This document shows, one piece after another, positions 5,447-49,398 of a stretch of DNA of 64,000 nucleotides. The notes below the pieces were generated by a model that saw only the letters and a list, made by a program, of their open reading frames with translations, was not told the DNA's origin and searched no databases. Made by a program: the position numbers and the translations under genes. Origin of the DNA: Candidatus Dormiibacterota bacterium (GTDB lineage: Bacteria; Chloroflexota; Dormibacteria; Aeolococcales; Bog-877); NCBI GenBank assembly GCA_049279335.1, contig JBAPNX010000024.1:375211-439210 (forward strand), written 5' to 3'. Numbering within the stretch: the stretch's first letter is position 1; each line of letters opens with the position of its first letter.

Positions 5447-5627
5447 CTAGTTCGGTAGGTCCTCTGGATTCACCACGGGGCCCGGATGATCCCCGAATCG
5501 CGGGAGCCGGCGATCGTGGGAACCGCCTCCGTGTCGTCCGATCGATCCTAGCACCAGTCTCGTCCTCGATCGAAGCCCGGCCCAGCTAAACTCGAACGGC
5601 AAGCGGGGACCCAGGGAGGCTTTGTCT

Positions 5628-11655: not shown

Positions 11656-14600
11656 TTGCCCGTCCGGGCTCTTCCGCTGGAGGTGGGCCTCCGTGACCTG
11701 GTCGGCCCCACCCGCGTGGTGGGCGGCCCGCGTTCGGGCAAGACCCAGCTACTGGTCGAACTGGCCGTGGAGTGGCTGCTGGGTGGAGGTGATCCCAAGC
11801 GCCTGGTGCTGGTCGTTCGGAGCGGGAGTAGCGCGGCGCTGCTGCAGCGACGGGTGGAAGCGATGCTGCCTGGCGCCCACCCGGCACCCTTGGTTCAGAC
11901 CCACGAACGCTTGGCGCGCGCGGTACTGGCCACGGTGGGCGAATCAGCCAAGCCAGCTGTGAGGCTGTCGCGGGTCGGGGAGTGGCTGGCGATGCGGGAA
12001 GCACTGAGTCGAGCTCGTGCTAGCCTGCCGCGCCTGGGGGAGCTGGTCGCGGAGCCCTCCTGCATCGACGACGCGCTAGCGGTCACCTCGGCATTCAAGC
12101 GGGCCCTGGTAGGGCCGGGGTTGCTGGCGCAGCGACTGCGCGGGGCGCCCGTCAGCCTGCGCGAGATGGTGGTGGTCGCCGCCAGCTACCAGACCGTCCT
12201 GGAGCAGATGGGCAGCCGGGACCCCCGCGACTGGCACGGCCTGGCGCTCACCGCCCTCGAGGACCCGAGCGCAATGCGGGACTGGGCTGAGGTCATGCTG
12301 GTGGACGAGGCGGAGGACCTCAGTCCTGCCCAGTGGTTCCTGGTACGCGAGCTGGGGCGGCGGCTGAGCCCGCCCGGACGCCTCGTCCTGGCTGGGCATT
12401 GGAGCGAGTCCGCTCCCGGCTTCCGAGGGGTCTCGAGCGAGTGTTCCAGCCGGCCCTTCGAGCAGTATTTCCCGAGCGAAATGGCGGCTGACGAGTGGGT
12501 GCTTCCCTCCGCGCTGCGCGGCTGGTCGCAGGCGCTCGTCGCCGAGCTCGGGCTTGGGACCGACGAACAGGTCGAGGACCAGTCCGGCGCCGAGGCGCAG
12601 ACCGCCGCGGAGGCGGCGTTCAGGGTCAGCCCCACTGCCCGGGTGTGGCAGGCTGTCGACGAGACCGGGGAGGCGATGGCAGTGGCCCGCGAGATCCTCA
12701 GGGCGCGCCTCGCGGGTGAGGTCGACTTCGGCGACGTGGCCGTCCTGGTCCGCTCCCCGGGAAGCCAGCTGGTCCCAATCCAAGCAGCCCTGAGCAGCCT
12801 GGGAATCCCCCACCGACTCCACGGCGGCGGTGGCTGGACTGGAGATCCCGTGGTGGCGGTGGTCCGCAACTGGCTGAGGGTCCTCTGCTCTCACCATGAC
12901 GACCAGGCGCTGCTGACGGCGCTGGGGATGGGTCCCCAGGCGGTGTCGCCGGCAGCGATCGCGGCGCTGCGCCGGGACGCCGGACTTAGCAATTGCTCGG
13001 TGACCACGGTTTTCTGGGCGGCCATGCGCAGCGACCAGAACCCCGATGCCGCCGAATGGGATGAGTTGCGCCGGGCGGGTCGTCCGTGGCTCCGGCTTGG
13101 TGCGGGCGACCCTGGAGTGGGCGGTCGGGAGCTCGATTGGCCGCAGCTCCGCGCGCTCCTGGGCGAGCTGGAACTGGCTGCTGGGCTGGCTGCCGCCGCC
13201 CTGGAAAACCTCGAGGTGGCGACGGTGCTGGCTGAGTTGACCCGGGTCGCGGCTGAGACCGCCGAAGCTACGGGACGGCTGAACCGGCCTAGGCGGAGCC
13301 TCACCGCGTGGCTGGAACTCTTGGAGCTGGCGGTTCGGCATGCCGGGGGGGAGGAGCCTGATCGCGAGTCGGACCGATCGGAGGTCTCGGTGTTGACCAT
13401 CAGCCAGGCCAAAGGCGGGGCCTGGTCCCGGGTCTTCCTCTGTGGTTGCGTCGACGGCACCATCCCTGCTCCTGTCGACTCGGGCGGAATGCTCGACGCC
13501 GAAGAGGTCAGCGAGCTGGTTCGGCTGGTGCCCGAGCTGGAAGACGTGCTCTCCTCCGGCGACTCCCAGCAGGACGCGGAGTCCCGGCTCTTCCTGGTGG
13601 CCTTGACCCGCGCCACAGCGGGAGTCACCTGTAGCTGGGCGCGACGCTATCGGGGGCGGCCGGCTGAGAGGTCCCCCCTGCTGCAGGCACTGATCGCAGC
13701 GGGCTGTGTCGAGACGGCGGCGCCTCATGCAGAGCTGGTCACGGCCGACGACCTGCTGATCGAGCTGTCGCTGGTCGCCGTCACCCCTGAGCCCGCCCCC
13801 CCGGGTCGAGATCCCCTGGGGTCGGCGGCAGCAGACCTACGGCAAGCGCTCGCCCCCTGGGATCCGGTCGCCGATGGTGCTGGCACGGTTGCCGGACCGG
13901 TCTCGATCAGTGCCACGTCACTCGCCAGCTGGTTGGCCTGTCCGCGTCAGTACCTGGCCCACACCCTGGAGCTGGCGCACGACCGTGGCATCAATCTCAC
14001 GTTGGGGGTCCAGGCACACCAACTCCTGCAGCGGCTGTATCAGGGAAAGGCCGACTGGGAGGACCGGCCGTTGGGGTTCCGCACCGCCGCCGCCGAACTA
14101 CTCCGCGAGAAGGTCATGCCCGAGGTCAGGGCGGAGGAGTGGGATCCGCTCAAGGTGCTTTTCGCCGAGCTGTGGCTGGGGGAGATGGTCTCGAGGTGGG
14201 AGCGGCGGGTCGTCGCAGCCGGAGAGAGCGCGGTGGGGGAGCCGATCGCCGAAGAGGTCAGCTTCGAACTGCCCCGGTCCGGCTGGCGCCTTCGGGGCAA
14301 GGTGGATGCGCTCTGGCGCCATCCCGACGGCGAGGTGGAACTGGTGGACTACAAGACCTCGCGGTTCAAGTCGAGCGACGCGGCGCTTCGCGCCGAAGTC
14401 TTCGGCAAGCCCCATGACGGACCGAAGCAGTGGCAGCTGCCGATCTACCAGCTGGCGGCGAGGGACGGCGCGTTCGAGGATCAGCTGGGTCGTCACCTGC
14501 CCGCGCGTGTCCGCAACTGGTACGTCGGAGTCGAGCCCAGCTCCAAGGGTCCTGACCCAATCAGCGCCGCCGGCTTCAGGGTGGTCACCGGCGCCGAGGA

Positions 14601-14820
14601 AGAGGGCGGAGCCGGGGTGCTGACCGAGAGGGAGTTGGACCGGATCGAGGCGGAGATCAACCGGGTGGCGGAGGCAATCCTCGGGGGTAGGTTCCCCGCC
14701 CAGCCGCGCCACGCTTTGCGGACCTGCAGGGACTCGCGGTCGGGCTGCCCGGTCGCCTTCTGGTGTGACGGCGAAGGCTCGGTGGGGGTGGACTTCCCCA
14801 CCCCGGCTCCAGAACTTTGA
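11656..14820 (+). CDS. adnA: AdnA/AddB-like subunit of a two-subunit helicase-nuclease (UvrD-like motor with weak motifs plus C-terminal RecB-family nuclease with Cys cluster)
   Basis: 1054 aa. Walker-A-like GGPRSGKTQ, DEAED box, helicase motif VI-like TISQAKGGAW. C-terminal PD-(D/E)XK nuclease motif GKVDALWRHPDGEVELVDYKTS. Cys ligands LACPRQY ... CRDSRSGCPVAFWC, consistent with an Fe-S-bearing AddB/AdnAB-type nuclease domain. Confidence 0.7.
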   Translation: MPVRALPLEVGLRDLVGPTRVVGGPRSGKTQLLVELAVEWLLGGGDPKRLVLVVRSGSSAALLQRRVEAMLPGAHPAPLVQTHERLARAVLATVGESAKPAVRLSRVGEWLAMREALSRARASLPRLGELVAEPSCIDDALAVTSAFKRALVGPGLLAQRLRGAPVSLREMVVVAASYQTVLEQMGSRDPRDWHGLALTALEDPSAMRDWAEVMLVDEAEDLSPAQWFLVRELGRRLSPPGRLVLAGHWSESAPGFRGVSSECSSRPFEQYFPSEMAADEWVLPSALRGWSQALVAELGLGTDEQVEDQSGAEAQTAAEAAFRVSPTARVWQAVDETGEAMAVAREILRARLAGEVDFGDVAVLVRSPGSQLVPIQAALSSLGIPHRLHGGGGWTGDPVVAVVRNWLRVLCSHHDDQALLTALGMGPQAVSPAAIAALRRDAGLSNCSVTTVFWAAMRSDQNPDAAEWDELRRAGRPWLRLGAGDPGVGGRELDWPQLRALLGELELAAGLAAAALENLEVATVLAELTRVAAETAEATGRLNRPRRSLTAWLELLELAVRHAGGEEPDRESDRSEVSVLTISQAKGGAWSRVFLCGCVDGTIPAPVDSGGMLDAEEVSELVRLVPELEDVLSSGDSQQDAESRLFLVALTRATAGVTCSWARRYRGRPAERSPLLQALIAAGCVETAAPHAELVTADDLLIELSLVAVTPEPAPPGRDPLGSAAADLRQALAPWDPVADGAGTVAGPVSISATSLASWLACPRQYLAHTLELAHDRGINLTLGVQAHQLLQRLYQGKADWEDRPLGFRTAAAELLREKVMPEVRAEEWDPLKVLFAELWLGEMVSRWERRVVAAGESAVGEPIAEEVSFELPRSGWRLRGKVDALWRHPDGEVELVDYKTSRFKSSDAALRAEVFGKPHDGPKQWQLPIYQLAARDGAFEDQLGRHLPARVRNWYVGVEPSSKGPDPISAAGFRVVTGAEEEGGAGVLTERELDRIEAEINRVAEAILGGRFPAQPRHALRTCRDSRSGCPVAFWCDGEGSVGVDFPTPAPEL

Positions 14821-17800
14821 ACCAGCGCCAGGCCTTCCTCGCCCTGGCCGAGGCGACTCTGACCCCAGCCCAGTTCCAGGTGGTGCAAGAACTGGGCCGA
14901 GGGCCGGTCAAGGTGGTGGCTGGGGCGGGCAGCGGCAAGACCACCACCATGGCCTATCTGTACGCCGCCGCCGTGGTCAGCGAGATCCCGGTGGGACGGA
15001 TCATGGCGGTCACCTTCACCGATCGGGCCGCCGTGGAGCTGCGGGCGAAGATCCTTGATGCCCTGGCTGCGGCTCGGCTGGTCCCAGCAGGAGCCGGACC
15101 CGATCCCCTCGAGGGAGCCTGGATCGGCACCTTCCATCAGCTGATCCGGCGGATGCTGGCGGAGCACGCCTACCTAGCCGGCCTGCCTCGGGATCTGGAA
15201 CTCGTCGACGAGGTGGTGGCGGGGATGGTGATGGAGGAGGCGCTGGACTCGGTGCGCCAGCAGGCGGCTACGTCCAGTTGGATGCAGCAGCTGCCACCTC
15301 AGCCCGACCCCCGCACCGTTCTTGGGCTCCTTGGCGGAGCCCGCGCCGCGGTGGAGCGACTCCGCTCCACCCAGCTCGAGGCAGACCAGTGCGAGCAGGA
15401 GTCCCTAGCCGCCTACGAATGGTTCGCCGCCAGTGGCGACTCTGCAGTGGAGATCGCCTGGCACCGAGCTGGGCTTGAACTGACAACCACCGTCTGGGCG
15501 GAGTACGAAGGTCGGCTCGCAGAACGTCAGACGCTCGACTTCGACGGGCTCCTTCGCCAAGGATTGCGAGCCCTGAGGAGCTCACCCGCCCTGCTCAGCT
15601 GGTGCCGTTCCACCTTCGAGCTGGTGATCGTCGACGAGTATCAGGACACCAGTGCCCTCCAGGAGTCAATGCTCCTGGAGCTCACTGGGCCGGCTCAGCG
15701 CAGCCTCTTCATGGTGGGCGACGCCCGGCAGTCGATCTATGCCTTTCGGGACGCCAAGCCCGGGATCATGACCTACGCGGCCGGCCGACCCTTCGGCCTG
15801 TTCCGCAACCACCGCTCGCGAAAGCCGATATTGGCTGCGGCCGATTTCGTAATCCGGGGCGATCCTCAGTTCGCAGACGACGATCCCATGGAAGCGGCCC
15901 GCGAGGGCGATTCCCCGCTCCCGGTCTGGGTCGCCGAGGTCGACCACCCCTCCAAGGAGGCAGAGGCGATCGCCGACGCGCTCCAGCAACTGCACCGGGA
16001 CGGGATCAATTATCCCGACGGCAGCCACCAGGACCTTCGCTGGTGTGACATGGCGGTACTCGCCTACACCCTCGGCCGGCTCGGTCTGTCGCTCGAGGAG
16101 TCGCTGAGGCTGCGAGGTATCCCCTTTCAGACCGTGAGCGGGGGGCTGTTGGCTCGGCCTGAGGTCAAGGATGTGCTGGCCTTCCTCAGGCTGGCGGCAG
16201 ACGACCGCGACGACCTTGCCTGCTTGCGCGTGCTGCAGTCACCGGTGGGGCGGATCCCGGACCGGGCCTTGCTTTCCCTGCGGCCCCGCCGGGGCGAGCG
16301 GGGTGCCTCGCTGGCCGAGCGGGCGCGTCGACACCTGGAGGAAGGCGGCGCGGGATGGGAGAGGTCGTGGACGGATCGTGCCCGGCGCATCCTGGCGCTG
16401 ATCGAGAAGCTCCGCGCCGCCGGCCGAACCTCTCCCGCTAGTCAGGTGCTGGCCCTGGCTCTGGCAGAGAGCGGTCTCCTGCGGCTGCAGCGAGCTCGAG
16501 TCCGGGCAGCGGACCCTCTGGGGCGCCGGGCCCTGGATGCCCTCTCAGAGCTGCAGCGGGTGGTTTGGGCCGCGGAGTCCAGCAGCCGCTGGCTCGGCTT
16601 GGGCGAACTGCTGGCCCGACTGGATGCCATGCGGGAAGACGCCACGACTGCCGAGCCGACGCCCCAGACCGACGAGGACCTGGTGACTATCAGCACCATC
16701 CACCGGGCCAAGGGCCTGGAGTGGCCCGTGGTGGTCCTGGCTGACTGCCGGCCCTACCAAGCGAGAAACCCTGGCTCGGTCATCTGGGACCGGCAGGCCA
16801 AGGCGGTCATCTGCACGCGAGTCGCCGGAGTCAAAACCTTAGCCTTCAAGCGCTGGTCTGAGAGTCCGGCCAAGAGGATCGACCTCGAAGAGCGTCGGCG
16901 CCTGATCTATGTGGCGATGACCAGGGCACGCGACCTGCTCTTGGTGACCACCAGTCGCAGCGGCACTCAGGGTGAGTTTGTCGAACTGGCCGCGGCGGCG
17001 GCGGGGCCGGCCAATTGGGCCAGCGAGTGGCCCGATTTCGCCGCCGAGGTGAGGCTGCCGTGGGCGGCGGCTGCGGGCGCCACCGGGGGCGTCACACAAA
17101 CCGGCGCTGCCGATGCGCAGCGCACCGTTTCAATGGCTCGGCTAAGGCAACGCTGGCTAGAGATAGAGCAGCTGCAAGCTACTGCCGGAACCGGCGTCTT
17201 CCGGCCAAAGCAGCTCAGTTTCACTGCAATGGAGACTCTTAACCGCTGCCCCCGGCAGTACTGGTATCGCTATCTGGCCCAGTATCCGATCGACTCAGCC
17301 GACCCAGGCTCGCCCAGGGGCCTCGTTGATGACGAATGGGGGGGCGAATCCGAGGGGATCGGCAGCGAGGCGGCTCGGGAGTTGGGCATTGCCGTGCACC
17401 AGGTCCTGGAGCGACTGCATGCCAGCCAACCCCTACGAGCCCCGACTCCCGTGGAGGCCGAAGTGGCGCTGGATGCGATGGCGGACAGCCTCAGTCTCCA
17501 GCAGCGGGACCTGGCGGAGGACATGGTCGGTCGCTACATCGCTGGGCGGGCTGCGGGGCTGCCAACGGTAGCCACCGAATTCAGCTTCAGCTGGAGAGAC
17601 TGGGCCGGACCCGGCTGTCCCACCCTGATCGGTGTCATCGACCGAGTCGCGCAGCTCCCGTCGGGCCAGCTCCTGATCATCGACTACAAGACCAACGTCA
17701 GCCTCGCGCCTGGGGAGCTGGCCGACTACTCGCGGCAGCTCCAGCTTTACGCGGCGGCGGTCACCGCCGGGGTGATGGGGACTGCAGTGCGGCCGCCGGC

Positions 17801-18041
17801 CACCGCGCTGGCCATGCTCCGGTCAGGGGAGCTGCTCGAGGTGCTAAGTGGCGACCTCGAGCGCCGGCAGGCGCTCAGCTGGGCCGCCGATGCGGCGCGC
17901 CGGGTCGAGGTGGGTGACTACCGATCGGCGGAGGCATTCCCCGCGCGCCCCTGCACTGCTTGTCCCTTTGTCGAGCGTTGTCCCGAACGCCGGCCAGGCA
18001 TCGCCGCGGGCTTAGCTGGGGAGCTTGAAGAGTCCCTGTAG
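14817..18041 (+). CDS. adnB: AdnB/AddA-like helicase-nuclease subunit (UvrD/Rep-family motor plus RecB-family nuclease)
   Basis: 1074 aa. Walker A AGAGSGKTT, motif II VIVDEYQDTS, motif III VGDARQSIYAFR. C-terminal LIIDYKTN nuclease motif and Cys cluster NRCPRQYW ... CTACPFVERCP. TTG start overlaps the upstream stop (TTGA), suggesting translational coupling. Confidence 0.75.
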   Translation: MNQRQAFLALAEATLTPAQFQVVQELGRGPVKVVAGAGSGKTTTMAYLYAAAVVSEIPVGRIMAVTFTDRAAVELRAKILDALAAARLVPAGAGPDPLEGAWIGTFHQLIRRMLAEHAYLAGLPRDLELVDEVVAGMVMEEALDSVRQQAATSSWMQQLPPQPDPRTVLGLLGGARAAVERLRSTQLEADQCEQESLAAYEWFAASGDSAVEIAWHRAGLELTTTVWAEYEGRLAERQTLDFDGLLRQGLRALRSSPALLSWCRSTFELVIVDEYQDTSALQESMLLELTGPAQRSLFMVGDARQSIYAFRDAKPGIMTYAAGRPFGLFRNHRSRKPILAAADFVIRGDPQFADDDPMEAAREGDSPLPVWVAEVDHPSKEAEAIADALQQLHRDGINYPDGSHQDLRWCDMAVLAYTLGRLGLSLEESLRLRGIPFQTVSGGLLARPEVKDVLAFLRLAADDRDDLACLRVLQSPVGRIPDRALLSLRPRRGERGASLAERARRHLEEGGAGWERSWTDRARRILALIEKLRAAGRTSPASQVLALALAESGLLRLQRARVRAADPLGRRALDALSELQRVVWAAESSSRWLGLGELLARLDAMREDATTAEPTPQTDEDLVTISTIHRAKGLEWPVVVLADCRPYQARNPGSVIWDRQAKAVICTRVAGVKTLAFKRWSESPAKRIDLEERRRLIYVAMTRARDLLLVTTSRSGTQGEFVELAAAAAGPANWASEWPDFAAEVRLPWAAAAGATGGVTQTGAADAQRTVSMARLRQRWLEIEQLQATAGTGVFRPKQLSFTAMETLNRCPRQYWYRYLAQYPIDSADPGSPRGLVDDEWGGESEGIGSEAARELGIAVHQVLERLHASQPLRAPTPVEAEVALDAMADSLSLQQRDLAEDMVGRYIAGRAAGLPTVATEFSFSWRDWAGPGCPTLIGVIDRVAQLPSGQLLIIDYKTNVSLAPGELADYSRQLQLYAAAVTAGVMGTAVRPPATALAMLRSGELLEVLSGDLERRQALSWAADAARRVEVGDYRSAEAFPARPCTACPFVERCPERRPGIAAGLAGELEESL

Positions 18042-19358: not shown

Positions 19359-19709
19359 TTAGGAGCGCTTGGCGGCAGTGCGACGGCGTGATGCGGTCTT
19401 GCCCGCGACGGCCGCCTTCAGTCCGGTGGAGGGGTAAAAACGCACCTTCTGAGAAGCCGGTACCCGCACCATCTCCTGGGTCTGAGGATTGCGCCGTAGG
19501 CCAGCCGCGGTCTGCCGGACCTTCCAGCGACCGAATCCGGCGACCGAGACCTCGCCGCCACCCTGGAGCTCGGTGCTGATGATTTGGAAGATCAGCTTGA
19601 GGGTGTCATCGGCAAGCTGAAAACTTGAGAAAAATGGCTCCTTCTTGCCTTCGTCGTTCTCAAATTGGATGCGGGTTTGTAGGGTTTTGGCCAGCTCACG
19701 GCGATTCAT
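19359..19709 (-). CDS. hup: HU family DNA-binding protein with short basic C-terminal tail
   Basis: FQIISTELQGGGEVSVAGFGRWKVRQTAAGLRRNPQTQEMVRVPASQKVRFYPS is the HU/IHF fold signature. Lys/Ala-rich tail as in actinobacterial HU. Start at MNRRELAK. Confidence 0.85.
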   Translation of the reverse strand: MNRRELAKTLQTRIQFENDEGKKEPFFSSFQLADDTLKLIFQIISTELQGGGEVSVAGFGRWKVRQTAAGLRRNPQTQEMVRVPASQKVRFYPSTGLKAAVAGKTASRRRTAAKRS

Positions 19710-19856
19710 AGATGTAGATCCTCCCTTGGGACGAACTGAGACGGTCAATGCGACGCACGAATACTAAGGAAAACGTGGGAGGTTGTGCAGGTTTCGTAGC
19801 TGCACAGTGGCTGCTTCCCGGCCTTTTCCCGAGCCTGAGCCCGGGATTTGCCTTGA

Positions 19857-19870
19857 CGAACATACGTTCG
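19857..19870. promoter_or_regulatory. LexA (SOS) box, Cheo/actinobacterial type CGAAC-N4-GTTCG, upstream of imuA'
   Basis: cGAACatacGTTCg is a perfect palindromic match to the GAAC-N4-GTTC core. Flanked by TTGACG (19853-19858) and TATACT (19871-19876) promoter-like hexamers. Lies 77 nt upstream of the imuA' start. Confidence 0.6.
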
Positions 19871-19946
19871 TATACTTGGGGAGGGCCAGGCCGGCGACCT
19901 AACCCCGCCTCGGCCCCCTCCAGAGCTTCACACAGGTGGTTTTCCA

Positions 19947-20765
19947 GTGTCCTCAAAGCCGGTCGGGCGGGGGGAGGGGAGGCTCGCCAAACCACTGGTT
20001 GGAGCTCTGGAGTCGGCGCTGTCCGCGCTCAGCCACCGCTATGGCCCGGGGACGGTTCAGGCTGGAGTTCCACCACCGCTCCTGGGGCTGGCAACTGGGG
20101 TGAGCGTCCTGGACGCCCTCACCGGGTGCCAAGGTCTGCCCCGGGGCCGTATCAGCCGGTTGCTGGGCAAGCCTTCGTCTGGGGCGTTCGATCTCGGTTT
20201 AGCACTGGCGGCGGACGCGTCCCAGTCCGAATCGGTAGCCCTGGTCGACTTCACCCTGGAGGTGGATCCCGGCGCTGTCGAGGCCTATGGGGGTGAGCTG
20301 GACAACTTCTGGCTGGTCAGGCCAAGGAGCTCGGAGGAGGGTTGGGCGGCGGCCAGAGCCCTGGCCAAGGCGGGGGTGGGTCTCTGTCTGCTGGTGGCCG
20401 ATGACTGGTCCCGTCTCACCCCCGGCGCTGCCCCCGCGGCCCTGTTGGCTGCCCTCTCCGAAGGAGCTGGCGCGGGCTTGGTCCTGGGAGGAGGGCGGAT
20501 CCCGGCAGCACTCAAGGAGAGGATCTGCCTGGAGCTGGAGTGCTGGCGCCTTGATTGGTCTTGGGCCCATGGGGATATCTGTGGTCTCCGGACGAGGGTG
20601 CAGGTCAGCCGCAGCCATCTAGGTGCTCCTGGGGCCAGCTGCCAACTGCAGCTCAACTTTCCCCGGCCCTATCCCCTGCGGATCGGTCTCGAGGTGTCAG
20701 TGGCGGTAGGGGATGAGGAGTTGGCGGCGGAGCCACTGCCTCAGGCGGCTGGGAGTCAGCGGTGA
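19947..20765 (+). CDS. imuA: ImuA' - RecA-derived mutasome protein with degenerate Walker A
   Basis: 272 aa, alignable to the RecA core (ALESALSALSHRYGPG..., LDALTGCQGLPRGRISRLLGKPSSGAF..., ALVDFTLEVDP...), but the P-loop is GKPSSGAF rather than GPESSGKT. GTGA overlap with imuB. Confidence 0.65.
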   Translation: MSSKPVGRGEGRLAKPLVGALESALSALSHRYGPGTVQAGVPPPLLGLATGVSVLDALTGCQGLPRGRISRLLGKPSSGAFDLGLALAADASQSESVALVDFTLEVDPGAVEAYGGELDNFWLVRPRSSEEGWAAARALAKAGVGLCLLVADDWSRLTPGAAPAALLAALSEGAGAGLVLGGGRIPAALKERICLELECWRLDWSWAHGDICGLRTRVQVSRSHLGAPGASCQLQLNFPRPYPLRIGLEVSVAVGDEELAAEPLPQAAGSQR

Positions 20766-22003
20766 GCCAGAGCCGCAAGGCGCGCCTGGCCTGCCTCACC
20801 TTTCCCCACCTCGCGCTGGTGCTGGTTTGGCGTGCCCATCCCGAGCTCAAGCCAGAGCCGGTGTTGGTGGGGGGCCAGGGCCCTGGTGGCAGGCAGGTGG
20901 TGATGGCGGCTTCAGCGCCTGCCTGGGCCCGGGGGGTACGGCCCGGCCAGGATTGGCGTCGGGCGGAGGTCCTCTGCCCCTTGGGGGCTCGGTTCTCGGC
21001 CGACCCTGCAGCTTTGACCGAGCTGCGGCGGATCGCCCGGCTGGCGCTGGCCGCCTGCAGCCCGCTGGTGGAGTGGGGGGATGACGCCAGCGCCTACGTC
21101 GATCTGGCCGGAAGCGATCCCATCAGGCCTCAGGAGGGGTTGCGGGCCGCTCAATGTGGCCGTGCCATCGAGGAGGCTCTGGGAGTGACGCCCAGTGTCG
21201 GCGTGGGTCCCTCTCGCTTCTCCGCCTGGGTGGCGGCTCAGCTGGCAGCCCCGGGCCGGGTGCGCCTGGTCCCGGAGGGAGAGGCCGCGGAATTTCTGGC
21301 CAATTGGCCGGTAACCGAACTGCCGATCCCTCCCCAAGTCGCGGAGCGGCTGGTTCAGTTCGGTCTCCATACCTGTGGCGATTGCGCCTCGATCACCATG
21401 GTGGAGCTACAACGCCAGTTCGGTCCGGATGGGATTCTTCTCCACCGACTCTGCCGGGGACAGGACTCAGCCGGGGTCGATCCCTGGTGGGCGGCACTCC
21501 CCTGTGGGGTGCGCCGGGTCCTGGCGGGGGGAGTCGACGACTCCGAGTCGCTTCGCTTCGGTGCCGCCGAGCTGGCCAGAGGCTTGGCCCAGGAGCTGTC
21601 CCGCCAGGGACAGGCGGCGGGACGGATACGGCTGCTCCTGCGCGGCGAGGACGAGACCAGGCATCCGGCTCAAGCGGACCGGCAACTCTGGTGGGGTGAG
21701 GTGGCGCCCCCCGCTCCCATGGCCACCGCCGATGAGCTGATGGGGCCGCTGCTCAGCCTTTTCAGCAAAGCTCGTCTCCTAGCCCCAGTGACGGTGGTGG
21801 AGCTGGAGGCCTTGGACCTGGTTGCTCCCCCGGTGAACCAGATCGGACTCTGGCAGGGGCGGGCGGCTGACCGAGAGGTGATCAAGCGGGCGGTGGACCG
21901 ACTCCACGACCGATTCGGCACCGGTCTGGTCTGGCGGGTGGAGGTACGTCCAGGGCACCCTGGGGACGTACCCGAGGAGCGGCTGGTCTGGAACTCCCGT
22001 TGA
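20762..22003 (+). CDS. imuB: ImuB - catalytically inactive Y-family polymerase-like mutasome protein
   Basis: N-terminus LACLTFPHLALV lacks the catalytic Asp/Glu of Y-family polymerases but keeps the fold motif LGVTPSVGVGPSRFSAWVAAQLA (compare G.T.S.GIA.NK.LAK). Lies between imuA' and dnaE2. 413 aa, which is shorter than the 527-aa M. tuberculosis ImuB. Confidence 0.7.
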   Translation: MSQSRKARLACLTFPHLALVLVWRAHPELKPEPVLVGGQGPGGRQVVMAASAPAWARGVRPGQDWRRAEVLCPLGARFSADPAALTELRRIARLALAACSPLVEWGDDASAYVDLAGSDPIRPQEGLRAAQCGRAIEEALGVTPSVGVGPSRFSAWVAAQLAAPGRVRLVPEGEAAEFLANWPVTELPIPPQVAERLVQFGLHTCGDCASITMVELQRQFGPDGILLHRLCRGQDSAGVDPWWAALPCGVRRVLAGGVDDSESLRFGAAELARGLAQELSRQGQAAGRIRLLLRGEDETRHPAQADRQLWWGEVAPPAPMATADELMGPLLSLFSKARLLAPVTVVELEALDLVAPPVNQIGLWQGRAADREVIKRAVDRLHDRFGTGLVWRVEVRPGHPGDVPEERLVWNSR

Positions 22004-22248
22004 CTTCGATCGAGGTTCGATCCGGAGGTGTGGCGGCTAGTCCACTGGCGGTGGACACCGGCACCGGCTGGGTGGGGGTGGAGGAGGTGGTGGAGCGCTG
22101 GCGAGTCGAGGTGGGCTGGTGGCGGGTCCCCTCTGAGCGTCCGGTCCAGCGCAGCTGCTGGCGAGTGCTGCTCGCGGATGGCCGCTGCCTCGACCTGCGG
22201 CTGGATCTGGCCTCCCGGCGTTGGGGGTTGGAGCGGACCTGGGGATGA
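22000..22248 (+). CDS. Small Trp/Arg-rich hypothetical protein overlapping the imuB stop (possible detached ImuB C-terminal module)
   Basis: 82-aa ORF with TTG start overlapping the imuB TGA (TTGA): ...VVERWRVEVGWWRVPSERPVQRSCWRVLLADGRCLDLRLDLASRRW. No recognisable domain. Confidence 0.35.
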   Translation: MTSIEVRSGGVAASPLAVDTGTGWVGVEEVVERWRVEVGWWRVPSERPVQRSCWRVLLADGRCLDLRLDLASRRWGLERTWG

Positions 22249-22346
22249 GACCGAACGTCTTCTGCTAGCGTCACTACATGCCCGACCGCCCGGCCACATC
22301 GACCTCGCCTCCGCCTTCGAACGCCCCACCCGGCGGGCGGCCGCCC

Positions 22347-24278
22347 ATGAACTACCGCTCGATGCGCAACTGGCTGCCGCTGATCATCATCCTGGTCCTC
22401 AACGTCCTGATCGTGAACGTCTTCCTGGCTCCATCCGCCCCCAAGACCATCACCATCCCCTACAGCACCTTCGTCAAAGACGTCGGCGGGAACGACGTCA
22501 GCAGCATCACCACCAGCTCGGGAACGATCAACGGCACCTTTCGGCATCTGACCGGGACCACCGCCACCTCCAAGACCAAGGCCAGGTATTTCACCACCCA
22601 GGTGCCCAGCTTCGCCGGGGGCGGCCTGGAGACCCTGCTCCAGAAGCACAACGTGACCATCAACGCCGAGAGCACCCTCACCCCCTTCTGGGAGGAGCTG
22701 CTGCTCAGCTTTGGTCCCACCTTGCTGATCGTCTTCGGCTTCATCTATTTGATGCGCCGGGTCGCTGCCTCGTCCAGTGGTGGCCTCTTCAGCATGGGGC
22801 GGAGCCAGGCCCGCCTCTACGATGCGGAGCGACCGGCCACCACCTTCGCCGATGTCGCGGGGATCGAGGAGGCAAAGGAGGAACTCGAGGAAATCGTGGA
22901 TTTCCTGCGCCAACCGGCCAAGTACCAACGCCTCGGTGGCACCGTGCCCAAGGGAGTGCTGCTGGTGGGGCTGCCCGGCACCGGAAAGACCCTTCTAGCC
23001 CGGGCGGTGGCGGGCGAGGCCAAGGTGCCCTTCTTCAGCCTCTCGGCCTCGGAGTTCATCGAGATGATCGTGGGAGTGGGTGCGTCGAGGGTCCGGGACC
23101 TCTTCACCAAGGCCCGGGCCGCGGCCCCGGCCATCATCTTCATCGACGAGCTCGACGCCATCGGGCGCAGCCGGGGAGCCGGGCCGAGCTTCGGGGGCCA
23201 CGATGAGCGCGAGCAGACGCTGAATCAGATCCTCACCGAGATGGACGGATTCGACTCCCGCGAGGGCGTGATCGTTCTCGCTGCCACTAACCGCGCCGAC
23301 GTGCTGGATCCGGCGCTGCTCCGGCCCGGGCGCTTCGACCGCCGGGTCATGGTCCAGCCCCCGGACCGGGTGGGCCGGGCCGCGATCCTCAAGATCCACA
23401 CCCGGGGAGTGCCCCTGGCCGATGACGTTGATCTCAACATCGTGGCCTCCCAGACCCCAGGACTGGTGGGCGCCGAGCTCCGCAACCTGGTTAACGAGGC
23501 GGCGCTCCTGGCCGCACGCCGCGACCGCAAGGCGGTGGCCATGGCCGACTTTACCGACGCCTTTGAGAAGGTACTCCTGGGGGCGGCCAGACGAATCGTT
23601 CTCTCCGAGGAGGACCGACGCCGCACCGCCTGCCACGAGAGCGGTCATGCCCTGCTGGGGCTGCTCATCCCCGAGGCCGACCCGGTGCGACGGGTTTCGA
23701 TCGTGCCTCGAGGGCGGGCCCTAGGGATTACGGTCCAGTCCCCGGTCGACGACCGCCAGAACTACCCCGAGACCTACCTCCGGGCCCGCATCGTCGGGGC
23801 GCTCGGGGGCCGGGCCGCTGAGAAGCTGGTCTACGACGTGGTCACCACCGGCGCCGAGAGCGACCTCCAGCAGGTGACGATCATCGCCCGGCAGATGGTG
23901 GTCCACTGGGGGATGAGCCCATTGATTGGTCCGCTCAACCTGACCGAGGAGCCAGACCAGCAGGCCCTGGTGATGCCGCAGCGGGCTTACAGCGAGGTGA
24001 CCGCCCAGGTGATCGATTCCGAGGTAAAGCGGATCGTGGAGGAGTGCTTCGCCGAGGCCTGTGATCTGCTGAGCAAGAATCGGGACAAGCTGGAGGCGTT
24101 GACCCAGGCCCTGCTGCGCGACGAGTCCCTCGACGAGGATGAGATCCTCAAGGTCACCGGCCTTTCCCCCAAGCCCAGCGCGGCACCGCCGCCTGCGATC
24201 TCCGGCAATGGGGTGGGCGGGGCTCCTCCCGAGCCGGACCCCGCCCACGAGCACCCTGCTCCCGAGCCGGTCCGCTAG
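22347..24278 (+). CDS. ftsH: ATP-dependent zinc metalloprotease FtsH
   Basis: N-terminal TM helices. AAA module with [17 protein letters not shown], and [26 protein letters not shown]41 HEXXH site [13 protein letters not shown] at 22347; the upstream part of the listed ORF is Pro-rich and non-native. Confidence 0.9.
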
Positions 24279-25015
24279 AACCAGATCCGCATCGCGATCC
24301 CCAGCTCGCGGTCGGTCTCGTCAGCATGGCTAGGGACCCAGCTGGCCTTGCCGGCGACGATTCGACGGGCGGTCCAGAGGCAGGCGTAGGCGTCCAGCGC
24401 GTCCTCGCTTGAGGGGCGGCGGGGATTGACCCCAGCCACCTCGGCGAACTCGGCCAGTAGCAGCCGCCGCCGGTGGGACCGCCCCTCGACGGTGTGCTTG
24501 GACCCGAGCGCGGCCCCGCCGAGCTCGCGAAAGGCAAGTTCCGGGTGACCCTCGTAGAACTTCTGAGCGTCTCCGCGTACCAGCGCCTCGTCGACCTCCC
24601 GGACCTTGGCCAGGATCCCGAAGGCCTGGCGCGACAAGCCCTTGCCCTCGATCTGGCGCCGGATGTCCTGGGCCTGCTGGTAGCTGGTTGCGCTCAGCAT
24701 CGGGCGCAGAGGGGCTGGGAACACGCTGGTGAGGCGGGGCCACCCCAGGAGTCGGCGGGCCTCCAGGTCGCAGGCTCGGGCGCCTCGCGTGGGCAGCCCG
24801 ATGGGGATGTCGAGGACGGCGGCTAGCACCGAGTGTCGGTTGCTGACGGCGGCCAGGAGGGGGGTGTCCCAGTGCTCCAGGGAGGTGGTCTGGTCGGCGT
24901 ACTGGAGGGCCACCATCCAGCCACCGGGGCAACCATCGGCGCCTATCAGCCTAAGGGCGGAGGGCACTGGCAAATCGTAGACCTGAGGGGAGTTGGAGGC
25001 CACTAAAGCGAACAT
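24275..25015 (-). CDS. DUF429 family protein (predicted RNase H-like nuclease)
   Basis: LRLIGADGCPGGWMVAL matches the DUF429 GIDGC.GGW signature. 3' end overlaps the ftsH stop (CTAG shared). The 5' end is uncertain: candidate starts at 25015 (ATG), 24973 (TTG) and 24967 (GTG). The longest one overlaps the dnaE2 SOS box. Confidence 0.55.
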   Translation of the reverse strand: MFALVASNSPQVYDLPVPSALRLIGADGCPGGWMVALQYADQTTSLEHWDTPLLAAVSNRHSVLAAVLDIPIGLPTRGARACDLEARRLLGWPRLTSVFPAPLRPMLSATSYQQAQDIRRQIEGKGLSRQAFGILAKVREVDEALVRGDAQKFYEGHPELAFRELGGAALGSKHTVEGRSHRRRLLLAEFAEVAGVNPRRPSSEDALDAYACLWTARRIVAGKASWVPSHADETDRELGIAMRIWF

Positions 25016-25022
25016 CAGTTCG
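25009..25022. promoter_or_regulatory. LexA (SOS) box upstream of dnaE2, with adjacent -10-like TATCAT
   Basis: gCGAACatcaGTTCGt is a perfect CGAAC-N4-GTTCG palindrome. TATCAT sits at 25023-25028, only 6 nt before the dnaE2 ATG (25035), suggesting a leaderless or very short-leader transcript. Confidence 0.6.
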
Positions 25023-25034
25023 TATCATGTGGCG

Positions 25035-28000
25035 ATGCCTCAGCTCAGCTTCTCGGAACTCTGGGCCCGTTCCTACTTCTCCTTTTTGGAAGGTGCCAGC
25101 GCCCCCGAGGCGATGGTCGCCCGGGCCGCCGAACTGGGGATGGCCGCCTTGGGCCTGGTGGATCGAGGCGGCCTATATGGAGCGGTACGGTTGGTCCAGG
25201 CTGCCGAGAGGGTCGGGCTGGCTGCCATGGTGGGGGCGGAACTGGACCTGGAGGGTGGGGGCCGACTGGTCCTGCTGGCCACCGACCGCCCCTCGTACCA
25301 ACAGCTCTGCCGAGCGGTGAGCCGGGCCCAGTTGGCGGGGGACAAGGGGGCCCACCGCCTCCACCTGACGGGACTGCAAGCAGTCCTCGCCGACGCTGCG
25401 GGCAGGGTAGGCGGTGAGCGCGATGCCGTCCCCTTGCCAGCGCTGACCCGGCGACGGAGCCGGCAGGACGGAGCGGAGGTCGCCGCTGACAGCCAGGTGG
25501 CGCCGGAGCAGGTCAGCCGCTGCACGGTGATGGCGGGAGGACCCCACAGCCCCATCAGCCTGGCCCTTCTCCGTGGTGACAGGGAGGCGGCCGATCGGGC
25601 TGCCCTGGCCCTCCGCGAAGCCTTCCCCAGAGGCCTGGTCTACCTCTCCATGCACCACCATCTCCATCCCGGAGACAGCTGGCTGGCGGCGGAGACCGCC
25701 GCCTGTGCGCTGCGGACTGGGGTGGGTCTCTTGGTTTCAGGCGCTCCCCGTTATGCCACAGCTCCCGAGGCGTCCCTCTTGGACGTGCTCACCGCCATTC
25801 GCCACAACTCCACCCTGGATGAGGCAGCCGAGCGAGGGCTGCTACTGCCCAACCACCAGTACCAGATGCGAGATGGGGACCAGCTGAGGGAGCTGCTCCC
25901 ATATCCGGCTGCCTTCCAGGCCACCGCCGATCTGGCTGCCCGAGCCGAGCTCAAGCTCGACTTCCGCCACAGCCGCTTCCCCGGCTTCAGGGCGCCTTCG
26001 GGACTGAGCCCCGATCAGTACTTGGAGCAGCTCTGCCGCCGAGGGCTGCCGAGCAGATACCCGACTCCCAGCGCTGAAGTTGAGGCCCGGCTGGTCCATG
26101 AGCTCCGGGTCATCGCCAAGTGCAAACTGGCCGAGTTCTTTCTCATCGTCTGGGAGCTGATGGACTTCGCCTCCCGCGAGGGGATACCGGCCCAGGGCCG
26201 GGGTTCCGCCGCCGACAGCCTGGTGGCCTACCTGCTGGGCATAACCCGGGTCGACCCCATTGCTCACCGCCTGCTCTTTGAGCGCTTTCTCCACGAGGAG
26301 ATGCAGGGCACTCCCGACATCGACATCGACATCTCGACTGCCCACCGGGAGCAGTTGCTCCGCCACGTCTACGACACCTACGGCCAGGATCGCACCGGGA
26401 TGGTGTGCACCGTCATCACCTTCCAGCTCCGGATGGCGGTCCGCCAGGTAGGGGCCGCCTTCGGGCTGCCCCAGCCGGTGGTGGACAAGCTCAGCCGCTC
26501 GGTGGACCGCTGGTACGGGAAGGGCGAGCAGGCCATGGTCGCCCAGCTGCTGGAGTCGGCTGGCGAACTCCCGGAACAGGTCCTGGTCTCACCGTCCTGG
26601 CGCCAGTTCGCCAGCATGGTGGAGGCGGTGGTGGGAGTGCCGCGCCATCTCTCCATCCATGTCGGCGGCATGCTGGTCACCGGAGAGCCGCTCTGGGATA
26701 TCGCCCCCTTGGAGCGAGCCACCATGCCCGGCCGGGTGGTGGTCCAGTTCGACAAGGACGACGTCGAGGACCTGGGCCTGATCAAGATCGACCTGCTTGG
26801 GCTGCGCACCCTCTCGGTGGTGGCCGAGACCCTTGACGAGCTGGAGCAGGCCACCGGTGAGCGCCCCGACCTGGAGGCACTGGACCTAGCCGACCCAGAG
26901 GTCTATGCCATGTGCGCCAGGGCTGACACCATCGGGGTCTTTCAGATCGAGTCGCGGGCCCAGCAGCAGACCCTGCCCCGCACCAACCCCAAGGAGTTCA
27001 ACGACCTGGTGGTCGAGGTGGCGATCATCCGGCCCGGCCCCATCCAGGGCAAGGCGGTCCACCCCTACATGCGCCGCCGCCAGGGTCGTGAAGAGGTGAG
27101 CTACCTCCATCCGCTGCTGGAACCGATCCTCCACGACACCCTGGGGGTGATCCTCTTCCAGGAGCAGATCCTGGAGATCGCCATGCAGCTGGCGGGATTC
27201 AGCGCCGGGGAGGCCGATCGCTTCCGCCGGGCCATGAACCGCCATCGCTCCCGGGTGGAGATGGGCTCCCTGGAGCAGGGATTTCTGGACGGCTGCTCTC
27301 GCCACCAGGTGTCGAGGGAGGTGGCGGCCGAGCTGTTCGAAGCAGTGAGGGGCTTCGCTGAGTTCGGTTTCTGCCGCAGCCATGCCGCCGCCTTCGCCCG
27401 CACCGCCTACGAGACCGCCTGGCTGCGGCTCTACCATCCCGCCGCCTATCTGGTGGGGCTGCTCAACCACCAGCCCATGGGTTTCTATCACCCGTCGGTG
27501 CTGGTCGAGGACGCCAAGCGGCGCGGAGTCAAGGTGCTCTCCGTGGACGTCAACCTCAGCCGGAGCCGCTGTCATCTGGAGGAGGGATCCAGGACTCCCC
27601 GCCAATTCGGCGTCCGACTCGGCTTCAACTACGTCAGAGAGCTGGGCGGGAACCTGGGTGAAGAGCTGGATCGAGAACGTGAGCTGGGCCCGTACCGATC
27701 ACCGGAGGACTTCTGGCGCCGTACCGAACTCTCCCGACCGGCGCTGGACTCCCTGGTGATGGTGGGTGCCCTGGACAGCTTTGGTGAGTCCCGCCGCAAA
27801 CTGCTCTGGCGGCTCAAGACGGTAGAGGAGGAGCTGGCGGGGAGCCGCGGACCGCGATCCACCCTCATCCCCGGACAGGCTGAACCGGTGAGTGCCAGGC
27901 AGCAGCAGTTGCTGGCGCTGCCGGCGGAACCACCGCGGCTGGCGGATCTGACCGCGAGGGAGCGGGCCGCGGCCGACTACCGAATCATGGGTCTGACCAC

Positions 28001-28403
28001 CGGAGAGCACCTGGTCTCCTTCCTGCGGCCGCAGCTGGCCGAACTGGGGGCGATTCCTCTGGCTGAGGTGAGAGAGGCGGGCAATGGCAGAAGGGTGCGG
28101 GCCGCCGGGCTGGTGATAACCCGCCAAGCGCCCTACTCCGCCCACGGCATGCGCTTCTTCACCGTGGTTGACGAGACGGCGCACCTGGACCTGGTTCTCC
28201 GCCCCCAGGTCTACCGGGCCCACCGGTCCTGGGCCAACCATGAGCCGGTGATCTGCGCCGAGGGGGTGTTGCAGGTGGCGGACGGGGCCCTCAGCCTCCT
28301 GGTCGAGAAATTGCTGCCACTACCCCGGCCGGTGCCCCAGGCGGCTGACCCTAGCCCGACCGACTCGTTGTTCCCCGCCCCGTCGGCTCACGACTACCAC
28401 TGA
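25035..28403 (+). CDS. dnaE2: Error-prone DNA polymerase III alpha subunit DnaE2 (ImuC)
   Basis: N-terminal PHP domain (FSFLEGASAPEAMVARAAELGMAALGLVDRGGLYG), polIIIalpha core and C-terminal OB fold. 1123 aa from ATG 25035, typical of DnaE2 rather than the replicative DnaE1 (about 1180 aa). Confidence 0.85.
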   Translation: MPQLSFSELWARSYFSFLEGASAPEAMVARAAELGMAALGLVDRGGLYGAVRLVQAAERVGLAAMVGAELDLEGGGRLVLLATDRPSYQQLCRAVSRAQLAGDKGAHRLHLTGLQAVLADAAGRVGGERDAVPLPALTRRRSRQDGAEVAADSQVAPEQVSRCTVMAGGPHSPISLALLRGDREAADRAALALREAFPRGLVYLSMHHHLHPGDSWLAAETAACALRTGVGLLVSGAPRYATAPEASLLDVLTAIRHNSTLDEAAERGLLLPNHQYQMRDGDQLRELLPYPAAFQATADLAARAELKLDFRHSRFPGFRAPSGLSPDQYLEQLCRRGLPSRYPTPSAEVEARLVHELRVIAKCKLAEFFLIVWELMDFASREGIPAQGRGSAADSLVAYLLGITRVDPIAHRLLFERFLHEEMQGTPDIDIDISTAHREQLLRHVYDTYGQDRTGMVCTVITFQLRMAVRQVGAAFGLPQPVVDKLSRSVDRWYGKGEQAMVAQLLESAGELPEQVLVSPSWRQFASMVEAVVGVPRHLSIHVGGMLVTGEPLWDIAPLERATMPGRVVVQFDKDDVEDLGLIKIDLLGLRTLSVVAETLDELEQATGERPDLEALDLADPEVYAMCARADTIGVFQIESRAQQQTLPRTNPKEFNDLVVEVAIIRPGPIQGKAVHPYMRRRQGREEVSYLHPLLEPILHDTLGVILFQEQILEIAMQLAGFSAGEADRFRRAMNRHRSRVEMGSLEQGFLDGCSRHQVSREVAAELFEAVRGFAEFGFCRSHAAAFARTAYETAWLRLYHPAAYLVGLLNHQPMGFYHPSVLVEDAKRRGVKVLSVDVNLSRSRCHLEEGSRTPRQFGVRLGFNYVRELGGNLGEELDRERELGPYRSPEDFWRRTELSRPALDSLVMVGALDSFGESRRKLLWRLKTVEEELAGSRGPRSTLIPGQAEPVSARQQQLLALPAEPPRLADLTARERAAADYRIMGLTTGEHLVSFLRPQLAELGAIPLAEVREAGNGRRVRAAGLVITRQAPYSAHGMRFFTVVDETAHLDLVLRPQVYRAHRSWANHEPVICAEGVLQVADGALSLLVEKLLPLPRPVPQAADPSPTDSLFPAPSAHDYH

Positions 28404-31745: not shown

Positions 31746-32933
31746 GTGGGCGCCGAGTCTAGAATCTGGCCAATGGGTTCGACGCCGGTCGGGCAGAGGC
31801 CTTCGTCCCAGCCGGCGAGCTCCCCGACGGTGAGTTTCGCCACCTACAACATTCTTTTGGGGGGCGGGGGGCGCTGGCCCGAAATCACCGAGCTGCTGCG
31901 CTCGGTCGATGCCGACGTGGTCGCGCTCCAGGAGGCAGATGACCGAGCCGCGGTCGCCCGGGCCGCGGACCAGCTCGGGTACCAGCTGATCTATGGCATC
32001 GCGCCAACCCCGGCGCAACAGGCGACGCCTCGGCACCAGGCGGTGCTCTCGCGCCTGCCGGTCGCGCGCTGGGTCAACCATCGCGATCCCACGGTGTTCC
32101 TGCGCAATTCACTGGAGGTCTGGCTGGAGACACCTCCCGGCAGCCAGATCAAACAGCTCTGTCTGCACACTGTTCACCTGACTGCGGCGTTCCAGCGCCG
32201 CGGGCGGGCAGAGCCAGACCGGGTCCGCGAGCTGGCGGCGGTCCAGGCCCACGCCGCTCAGCACCCCGAGGTTCCCCACCTGGTGGCCGGCGACTTCAAC
32301 TCGGTGGCTCCGGGTGACAGGATCCAGGCCACCGACTTCTTTGCCCAGATCAACCTCTGGCGCCGAACCGGAGTTCTCCAGGGGGCGGGAGCCATCGGGC
32401 CTATTCCCCCCGGCCTGTCGCGCCTCCGCTGGTGGCAGGACCCGGAGACAGCCGATGCCATCGTGGAGGAGTTGCCTGAGGCGGTGAGGAGCGGATTGCC
32501 CCGGCTGCCCTGGCTGGTCCATCCCCTTTTGGAGGTGCTGCCTCGGGGCGATACCACCGACGCGGTCCTGGGGGCGCTGTTGCCGCGGGCCGCGGTTCGG
32601 AGCATGCTCAGGGCGGGATACATCGATTGCCTGCGGGCTCTCCACCCCCGAGCCAGCGCCTTCACTTGTCCCACCTATCAACCAGCGGCTCGCATCGACT
32701 ACGTTTTCGTCACCAGGGGACTTGACCGGCGGCTGGTCCGCTGCGAGGTTGTGGGGGGGTCGGGCGACCTGGGGAAGCTGGCCCGGCGGGCCAGCGATCA
32801 TTTCCCGGTGATAGCGGAATTCGGTCTCGCCTCGACTCGGTCCCAATCTCTGGGACCGGCCCGGGCCTCTCGTACCGGGAGCCCCGGTGGGGCTGGCACG
32901 TCGCCATCGCGGGACGACGCGCCAGCCGGGTAG
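31746..32933 (+). CDS. Endonuclease/exonuclease/phosphatase (EEP) family protein
   Basis: SFATYNILLGG...DVVALQEAD...GDFNS...SDHFPV are the EEP catalytic motifs. Alternative ATG start at 31773. Confidence 0.75.
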   Translation: MGAESRIWPMGSTPVGQRPSSQPASSPTVSFATYNILLGGGGRWPEITELLRSVDADVVALQEADDRAAVARAADQLGYQLIYGIAPTPAQQATPRHQAVLSRLPVARWVNHRDPTVFLRNSLEVWLETPPGSQIKQLCLHTVHLTAAFQRRGRAEPDRVRELAAVQAHAAQHPEVPHLVAGDFNSVAPGDRIQATDFFAQINLWRRTGVLQGAGAIGPIPPGLSRLRWWQDPETADAIVEELPEAVRSGLPRLPWLVHPLLEVLPRGDTTDAVLGALLPRAAVRSMLRAGYIDCLRALHPRASAFTCPTYQPAARIDYVFVTRGLDRRLVRCEVVGGSGDLGKLARRASDHFPVIAEFGLASTRSQSLGPARASRTGSPGGAGTSPSRDDAPAG

Positions 32934-43415: not shown

Positions 43416-43539
43416 GAGAGATCTATGGTGGAATCGGGAGATGGCGCCGGGTTTGGCCGGCGCCCGGCTGCGGTAGGGTAGCTCTAGCGGTGCCTCGACG
43501 TGGCATCAGGCTGCAGTGCAACGGAGGTTCGGAGACGTA

Positions 43540-46424: not shown

Positions 46425-46501
46425 GGCTCGACTTCACTGTTTCCCCGCTACCACGCGCGGGTAAAAACACTGCATGGGAAAAATGGATCGGGGGGTGGCG
46501 G

Positions 46502-49326: not shown

Positions 49327-49398
49327 GGCCGACGTAGCTCAGTGGTAGAGCAGCGGTTTCGTAAACCGCTTGTCCGGGGTTCAAATCCCCGCGTCGGC
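49327..49398 (+). tRNA. tRNA-Thr (anticodon CGU)
   Basis: Cloverleaf: acceptor GCCGACG/CGTCGGC, D-arm GCTC-AGTGGTA-GAGC, anticodon arm GCGGT-TTCGTAA-ACCGC (anticodon CGT), T-arm CGGGG-TTCAAAT-CCCCG. CC encoded, A not encoded. Confidence 0.85.

Follow-up and report, generated by a model that had tools for sequence, protein, structure and literature searches.

The window analysed here, a 64-kb stretch of DNA from a soil bacterium of Candidatus Dormibacterota with 47 predicted genes, holds a candidate SOS mutasome locus in which an imuA-like gene, imuB and dnaE2 are found together with ftsH and a gene of the DUF429 family. The explanation that best accounts for all parts of the locus, to which a probability of about 0.7 was given, is that of a LexA-type mutasome made up of two transcription units, with ftsH as a housekeeping passenger and the DUF429 gene as a dispensable neighbour. 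The combination of a dead RecA paralogue, an inactive Y-family polymerase (iPolY) unfused to its ImuB-C module, and DnaE2 is absent from the types recognised in the published surveys and would constitute an undescribed mutasome architecture, a reading judged more likely than one built on read-through into ftsH. The novelty would lie in a dedicated ImuA-like subunit occurring together with a split ImuB, and not in ftsH.

Relatives of the locus came from look-ups of contigs and from scans of genome and metagenome sequences, which gave about 15 distinct loci, all falling in one phylum-level clade. A MAG (metagenome-assembled genome) at NCBI encodes an FtsH identical to that of the window. The nearest FtsH homologues were all from Candidatus Dormibacterota, and the closest genome among the matches listed was OY969577.1 (a closed 2.49-Mb MAG chromosome), with an FtsH 94% identical to that of the window and the same gene order. 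A preliminary description of the window had set the locus against Actinobacteria, in many of which imuA'-imuB and dnaE2 are separate; this comparison was misplaced, the closest genomes being Candidatus Dormibacterota MAGs. The genes were found where that description had put them, and the families it had named were upheld by Pfam and NCBIfam. The open reading frames (ORFs) of the block lie at 19947-20765, 20762-22003, 22000-22248, 22278-24278, 24275-25015 (minus strand) and 24993-28403, and those of the imuA-like gene, iPolY and imuB-C are joined by 4-nt overlaps.

The first gene of the imuB operon encodes a RecA-derived subunit without an ATPase site. The protein matched the RecA N-terminal/core family of Pfam (E = 1.4e-11) and has kept a RecA-NT-like N-terminus and the RecA core; its P-loop is degenerate (GKPSSGAF), and this segment is unconserved among 8 orthologues, as the earlier account of a RecA-derived imuA' with a degenerate P-loop had it. 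In NCBIfam it scored 46.9 bits with RecA and 25.7 bits with the ImuA model NF033429 (cut-off 150), and the best annotated tblastn matches were true recA genes (about 29% identity). Since the RecA models outscore the ImuA model and the tblastn relatives are true recA genes, the protein encoded at 19947-20765 is classed as ImuA-like by its position and its predicted dead state only, outside the curated ImuA family. A metagenome scan with the ImuA alignment returned only 9 loci, all of the same clade.

The inactive Y-family fold claimed for imuB was also borne out. In iPolY the catalytic Asp motif DMD is replaced by LTFPHLAL and the DE motif is altered, and the protein falls below all DinB cut-offs of NCBIfam; judged by these residues, it is a catalytically dead Y-family polymerase. 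A PDB sequence search with ImuB matched DinB-type polymerases only. The C-terminus carries a clamp-binding-like motif (QIGLWQ) and a RecA-NT-like motif (REVIxRAVDRLHDRFGxGLVWRV), both kept in 10 loci.

The small W-rich ORF that follows (22000-22248) had been described without a name; it exists, but it is not anonymous, and a profile of its orthologues identifies it as a standalone ImuB-C. The Pfam match (DUF6504) was weak and near threshold. The 9 orthologues are all 82-85 amino acids (aa) long, with an invariant W-rich pattern and W-G at the end, and a profile made from them matched 89 cluster representatives, most of which are standalone proteins of 70-160 aa. Several other matches were proteins of 416-576 aa, matched at the extreme C-terminus only, and these carry IMS domains. 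The ImuB-C domain has been described by Aravind et al. (PMC3765255) and by Timinskas & Venclovas (PMC6511836), and the terminal W and basic residues of the ORF agree with the former description. A PDB sequence search with ImuB-C gave no informative match, and no literature on DUF6504 was found. On this evidence ImuB is split into an inactive Y-family polymerase and ImuB-C. A fused ImuB-C at the C-terminus of ImuB, as in known mutasomes, was seen in none of the relatives: in all of them ImuB-C is a separate ORF, and imuB and imuB-C lie in separate frames with an NTGA stop/start overlap. A frameshift or sequencing error was considered as the origin of the split and ruled out; the two-ORF NTGA junction is kept across loci in which ImuB identity ranges from 56 to 95%, and the split is therefore genuine.

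The second group of observations concerns the promoters. CGAAC-N4-GTTCG is the LexA consensus (Cheo box) of Gram-positive bacteria and Chloroflexi, and the motif at the imuA and dnaE2 promoters is taken here to equal that consensus. Its perfect form occurs at two places only in the 64 kb, those already reported for it, CGAACATACGTTCG (box 1) and CGAACATCAGTTCG (box 2); 0.06 sites were expected, and at least two were obtained in 0 of 100 shuffles. When GAAC-N4-GTT[CT] was searched for in 320 kb of DNA from 19 related loci, 28 sites were found, and 26 of these were at the imuA and dnaE2 promoters, where the place of the boxes is fixed in about 15 related loci. The half-sites are conserved, and the 4-nt spacer and the flanks vary among relatives. 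Absence of the boxes from relatives had been named beforehand as a point that would tell against them; their conservation upholds the picture of a two-arm mutasome locus, with an operator-like LexA-type box on each arm. No LexA-regulated cassette of bacteria is better conserved than that of the imuA/imuB/dnaE2 genes (PMC3765255).

At imuA, a TTGCnT element, a 17-nt spacer holding the box and a TAyAmT element are conserved in 16 related loci. At dnaE2, the arrangement TATsAT-N6/7-ATG/GTG is kept in 11 loci, with the box abutting the -10 element. The most likely start of dnaE2 is ATG 25035 rather than 24993, and its transcript would be leaderless. The product has the PHP, pol3_alpha, finger, HHH_6 and OB domains in Pfam. 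A TAnnnT element stands 5-8 nt before the start codon of 13 of the 47 genes of the window, and of 933 start-like codons in frame inside genes none has one there; leaderless mRNAs appear to be common in this Dormibacterota genome. The predicted elements are listed with the genes in Table 1.

Table 1. Genes, boxes and predicted promoter elements of the mutasome locus (window coordinates)
Feature	Coordinates	Strand	Remarks
imuA promoter (predicted, consensus scan)	19848-19876	+	-35 TTGCCT (19848-53); 17-nt spacer with box 1; -10 TATACT (19871-76); predicted transcript start at about 19883
LexA-type (Cheo) box 1	19857-19870	.	same place in relatives
imuA-like gene	19947-20765	+	RecA-derived paralogue; predicted leader of about 70 nt with AGGTGG Shine-Dalgarno sequence
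imuB N-part (iPolY)	20762-22003	+	Pfam IMS and IMS_HHH; 413 aa; without ImuB-C
imuB-C (DUF6504), standalone	22000-22248	+	82 aa; TTGA overlap with imuB, predicted translational coupling
ftsH promoter, extended -10 TG-c-TAGCGT (predicted)	22263-22271	+	6 nt before leaderless ATG 22278
ftsH, membrane AAA+/M41 protease	22278-24278	+	Walker A/B, second region of homology (SRH) and HESGH intact
DUF429 gene	24275-24967	-	230 aa from GTG 24967; RuvC/RNase H-like nuclease fold
DUF429 -10 TACGAT (predicted)	24974-24979	-	6 nt before leaderless GTG; 29 nt from box 2
LexA-type (Cheo) box 2	25009-25022	.	conserved in relatives
dnaE2 -10 TATCAT (predicted)	25023-25028	+	abuts box 2; 6 nt to leaderless ATG 25035
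dnaE2, error-prone C-family polymerase	25035-28403	+	NF004225, 996.7 bits (cut-off 939)

A third site of the relaxed form, GAAC-N4-GTTC (CGAACCGGAGTTCT, 32364-32377), was considered as an operator and set aside; it lies inside an ORF of the Exo_endo_phos family (31746-32933), is without the flanking C and G, and is probably a chance match. The box of dnaE2 is degenerate in the more distant relatives L004 (15625-15644) and L099 (about 14990-15005), reading GTAC-N4-GTTT or GTAC-N4-GTTC, and in L099 the -10 element is not directly next to it any more, which suggests that operator function is weaker or altered in these two lineages.

A mechanism consistent with these observations would be as follows. 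The first unit (imuA-like gene, iPolY and imuB-C) would be transcribed from a promoter of the sigma-70 type, with the operator occupying its 17-nt spacer, and the second, leaderless dnaE2, from a -10 element abutting the second operator. LexA would bind at both; upon DNA damage, RecA-stimulated cleavage of LexA would relieve repression at the two promoters. As a scaffold, the dead Y-family protein would dock on the beta clamp through QIGLWQ and bind the dead RecA paralogue through the RecA-NT-like motif, and iPolY together with the separate ImuB-C beta-barrel would recruit DnaE2 for error-prone bypass. [quoted passage not shown]

The locus shares several features with the canonical ImuA-ImuB-DnaE2 systems (ImuA'-ImuB-DnaE2 of M. 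tuberculosis; imuABC of Caulobacter and Pseudomonas): a cassette under (here predicted) SOS-box control, a RecA-like subunit with a dead ATPase site, a dead Y-family scaffold with clamp-binding and RecA-NT motifs, an ImuB-C module and an error-prone DnaE2. It differs from them in that ImuB-C is a separate 82-aa protein, the RecA-like subunit is nearer to true RecA than to the curated ImuA, and the leaderless dnaE2 is a unit of its own, set apart by unrelated genes. With the DnaE2X-iPolY-ImuB-C-RecA module of the Kyrpidia tusciae type (Timinskas & Venclovas, 2019; NAR 2026) it shares an inactive PolY, a standalone ImuB-C and a DnaE2; there, however, imuA is missing, whereas here a dedicated dead RecA paralogue opens the operon. 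A standalone ImuB-C with an inactive PolY and DnaE2 has been described only in genomes without imuA, where the housekeeping RecA was presumed to act instead, and these split systems were proposed as the ancestor of ImuA-ImuB-DnaE2 (PMC6511836; NAR 2026). If the present reading is true, the Dormibacterota architecture would be the missing intermediate between the split systems without ImuA and the fused ImuA-ImuB-DnaE2; either duplication and inactivation of RecA would have preceded the ImuB fusion, or the fusion would be reversible. The placing of the ImuB-C/DnaE2 and RecA-NT/ImuA interfaces on separate polypeptides would be convenient for biochemistry.

The boxes follow the same consensus as known Cheo-box LexA operators and have the same operator-like placement over core promoter elements, with the difference that one of them abuts the -10 element of a leaderless gene; the role of LexA here is a predicted one. 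They would be the first evidence at the level of sequence that the uncultured soil phylum Dormibacterota has a Cheo-box SOS system, and the promoter elements are evidence for widespread leaderless, extended -10 promoters in this phylum.

Several observations weigh against the explanation given above. The ImuA-like protein scores far below the cut-off of the curated ImuA model NF033429 (25.7 against 150 bits), and a single-sequence structure model of it reached a predicted local distance difference test score (pLDDT) of 37. When E. coli LexA and RecA were compared by tblastn with the window and with the Dormibacterota loci retrieved, neither lexA nor recA was found, and the repressor is therefore named from the motif. 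All transcription starts were assigned from sequence. The remaining points concern ftsH. It adjoins imuB-C in about 14 of the approximately 15 imu-bearing loci, which could reflect selection rather than shared descent; the gap between the two is 29 nt in most relatives and no terminator was predicted in it, and ftsH may be partly co-transcribed. A pattern-based scan gave one ftsH locus per Dormibacterota genome among the matches listed, OY969577.1 included; further copies may exist elsewhere in the genome.

Among the other explanations, the one that survives best regards DUF429 as an accessory nuclease of DnaE2, co-regulated by LexA, with the shared box repressing both divergent promoters and the enzyme processing RNA-DNA hybrids, embedded ribonucleotides or branched DNA from error-prone synthesis. 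DUF429 was recognised by its Pfam match (E = 2e-47, ORF 24275-25015); the family match, the RNase H-like/RuvC-like fold and the conserved acidic residues of RNase H-like clade D were all present. RNase HII activity has been reported for the DUF429 domain of MSMEG_5849 of M. smegmatis (PMC4429107); unlike that RNase HII-like protein, the one encoded here is single-domain, without a RelA/SpoT fusion, its pairing with dnaE2 is restricted to the clade, and its nuclease role is predicted. A PDB sequence search with DUF429 gave no informative match. The most likely start is GTG 24967 rather than 25015, and TAnnnT-N6-start is kept in 10 loci. The divergent DUF429/dnaE2 pair is conserved across most of the clade and as far out as L004 (DUF429 46% identical), and the box mostly stands 29 nt upstream of the DUF429 -10, beside the expected -35 place, as co-regulation would have it. 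The box, however, is fixed with respect to the -10 of dnaE2 but lies 21-33 nt from that of DUF429, and its centre falls near -48 relative to the DUF429 start, an unusual place for repression. Nor is the gene always kept: in L096 (12220-12750, minus strand) only a remnant is left (about 30% identity over 121 aa, frames broken), with the dnaE2 box and promoter intact, and in L099 and L013 no DUF429 gene adjoins dnaE2. Homologues in other phyla (42-46% identity) are found in cobalamin, msrA or restriction-modification contexts, without dnaE2. Such an accessory role seems unlikely. LexA control of DUF429 is possible, and the promoter geometry does not indicate it; the gene is best regarded, from its distribution, as a lineage-specific, dispensable neighbour. 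As for its earlier description, DUF429 does diverge from dnaE2 but converges with ftsH, and its proposed partnership with the mutasome draws some support from the pair being kept in most of the clade, against which stand the L096 remnant, the absence in L099 and the unlinked homologues. A role for DUF429 in a defence island was also considered and rejected; there was no PADLOC match and there were no defence genes around DUF429 in the clade. PADLOC had no match for the ImuA-like protein or ImuB-C either, and FtsH matched generic AAA+ models only.

In a further explanation, ftsH is a member of the damage response, co-transcribed from the LexA-controlled promoter and acting on mutasome components or on cell division. 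Lon and ClpXP, by analogy, control UmuD and UmuC. ftsH is on the same strand as the first unit, the gap is short and free of a predicted terminator, as said above, and the adjacency to imuB-C is kept in about 14 loci despite repeated rearrangement just downstream of ftsH; a standalone ImuB-C beside a zinc metallopeptidase of a different family, DUF955, was noted by Aravind et al. (PMC3765255). The claim that no obvious promoter precedes ftsH, however, did not hold. The 29-nt gap contains TCTG-n-TAGCGT, then 6 nt and ATG 22278, and in 15 distinct loci the TCTG, the TAG and the final T of this extended -10 element are 100% conserved, against 40-60% just upstream. L099 and L013 have kept the arrangement TCTGCTAGCCT-N6-ATG with a gene unrelated to imu in front of ftsH: in L099 a 921-aa ORF (5068-7833) for which Pfam gave no match has come to lie between imuB-C and ftsH, and in L013 an Ig-like ORF stands upstream of ftsH, apparently the C-terminal Ig-like part of the same 921-aa ORF. 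A LexA box was found neither within 22249-22277 nor in the equivalent segments of relatives. Close spacing and the lack of a match to the -35/-10 consensus are insufficient for inferring co-transcription where leaderless TAnnnT promoters are used.

The protein and its distribution also speak against a damage-induced role for ftsH. FtsH has the full Pfam set (FtsH_ext, AAA, lid and M41), scores 749.9 with the equivalog model TIGR01241 (cut-off 600) and shares 53-62% identity with FtsH proteins from other phyla among the matches listed. It shares with housekeeping FtsH the four domains, the catalytic motifs and a score above the cut-off, and differs in lying 29 nt downstream of an SOS operon and in having a Pro-rich 23-aa N-terminal extension from the predicted leaderless ATG. 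ftsH adjoins imu in one Dormibacterota clade only; none of the distant Dormibacterota loci L006, L014 and L100 and none of 72 loci of other phyla had imu neighbours beside it. The synteny that was proposed as a check held in about 14 loci. No literature linking ftsH with imuB and LexA was found, and the window contains no second ftsH. The upstream flank of the block (two helicase-nucleases, SCP2, epimerase and HU) is kept as well as the imu-ftsH adjacency; because it is equally conserved, the adjacency is what general synteny predicts. ftsH as a damage-induced, co-transcribed partner is accordingly improbable, and ftsH is probably an independent housekeeping unit. Some SOS read-through from the first unit is possible. 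That such read-through boosts ftsH besides its own promoter, with FtsH tuning the lifetime of mutasome subunits or division proteins, is quite improbable; if true, it would add a new post-translational layer of control to SOS mutagenesis. In sum, what the preliminary description had observed was largely right, and its interpretation was partly supported.

Finally, that the palindromes are not LexA operators but promoter-associated sequence or sites of another regulator, conserved through close kinship, would suit the lack of a lexA in the window and fetched loci and the origin of all compared loci from one clade, but is very improbable given that the motif is the known LexA consensus, that the boxes stand at exactly the two genes of the LexA-regulated cassette mentioned above, and that the half-sites are kept while spacer and flanks vary, with only 2 of 28 sites elsewhere.

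Two other MAGs gave isolated proximities to ftsH that are probably coincidental: a lexA homologue about 5 kb downstream of it in a Gaiellaceae MAG (L064, 13161-13724) and a Y-family polymerase-like gene 5.6 kb upstream of it in an Actinomycetota MAG (L051, 3226-4338).

The gene order around dnaE2 varies. Between ftsH and dnaE2 no additional cargo is found in the window, L007 and L090; L008-12 and L091-95 have a gene for an MFS transporter there, L004 a CLIPPER-domain gene, and L099 genes for a vapBC toxin-antitoxin, Uma2, GntR and Big_1. In L002/3 dnaE2 is not nearby. The compact 8.5-kb block reported earlier is present in the window but not constant among relatives; given these differences in cargo, compactness is one of several states that the region can take, probably a derived state. 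In the window ftsH (plus strand) and DUF429 (minus strand) converge, and their stop codons overlap in the palindrome CTAG (24275-24278); there is neither a spacer nor a terminator between them, and transcription from both sides would collide.

Ahead of the imu block lie two successive genes (11656-14820 and 14817-18041) for proteins of about 1050 aa, both of which have a UvrD-type helicase domain and a PD-(D/E)XK nuclease domain. They resemble an AdnAB/AddAB-like end-resection pair, are preceded by a TetR gene and are kept at this place in all relatives; in front of the pair (11656-18041) no LexA-type box was seen. A gene for an HU/IHF-like DNA-binding protein (19359-19748, minus strand) diverges from imuA and is kept in every related locus; the LexA-type box lies outside the promoter region of this gene. 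Farther downstream, a chaperone cluster (43516-49186) comprises dnaK (43516-45465), an alpha/beta hydrolase gene and clpB (46502-49186) and is followed by tRNA-Thr (49328-49401). A protein of 1184 aa encoded at 58159-61713 combines a double zinc ribbon, an adenylate/guanylate cyclase domain, an AAA_16 ATPase and TPR repeats.

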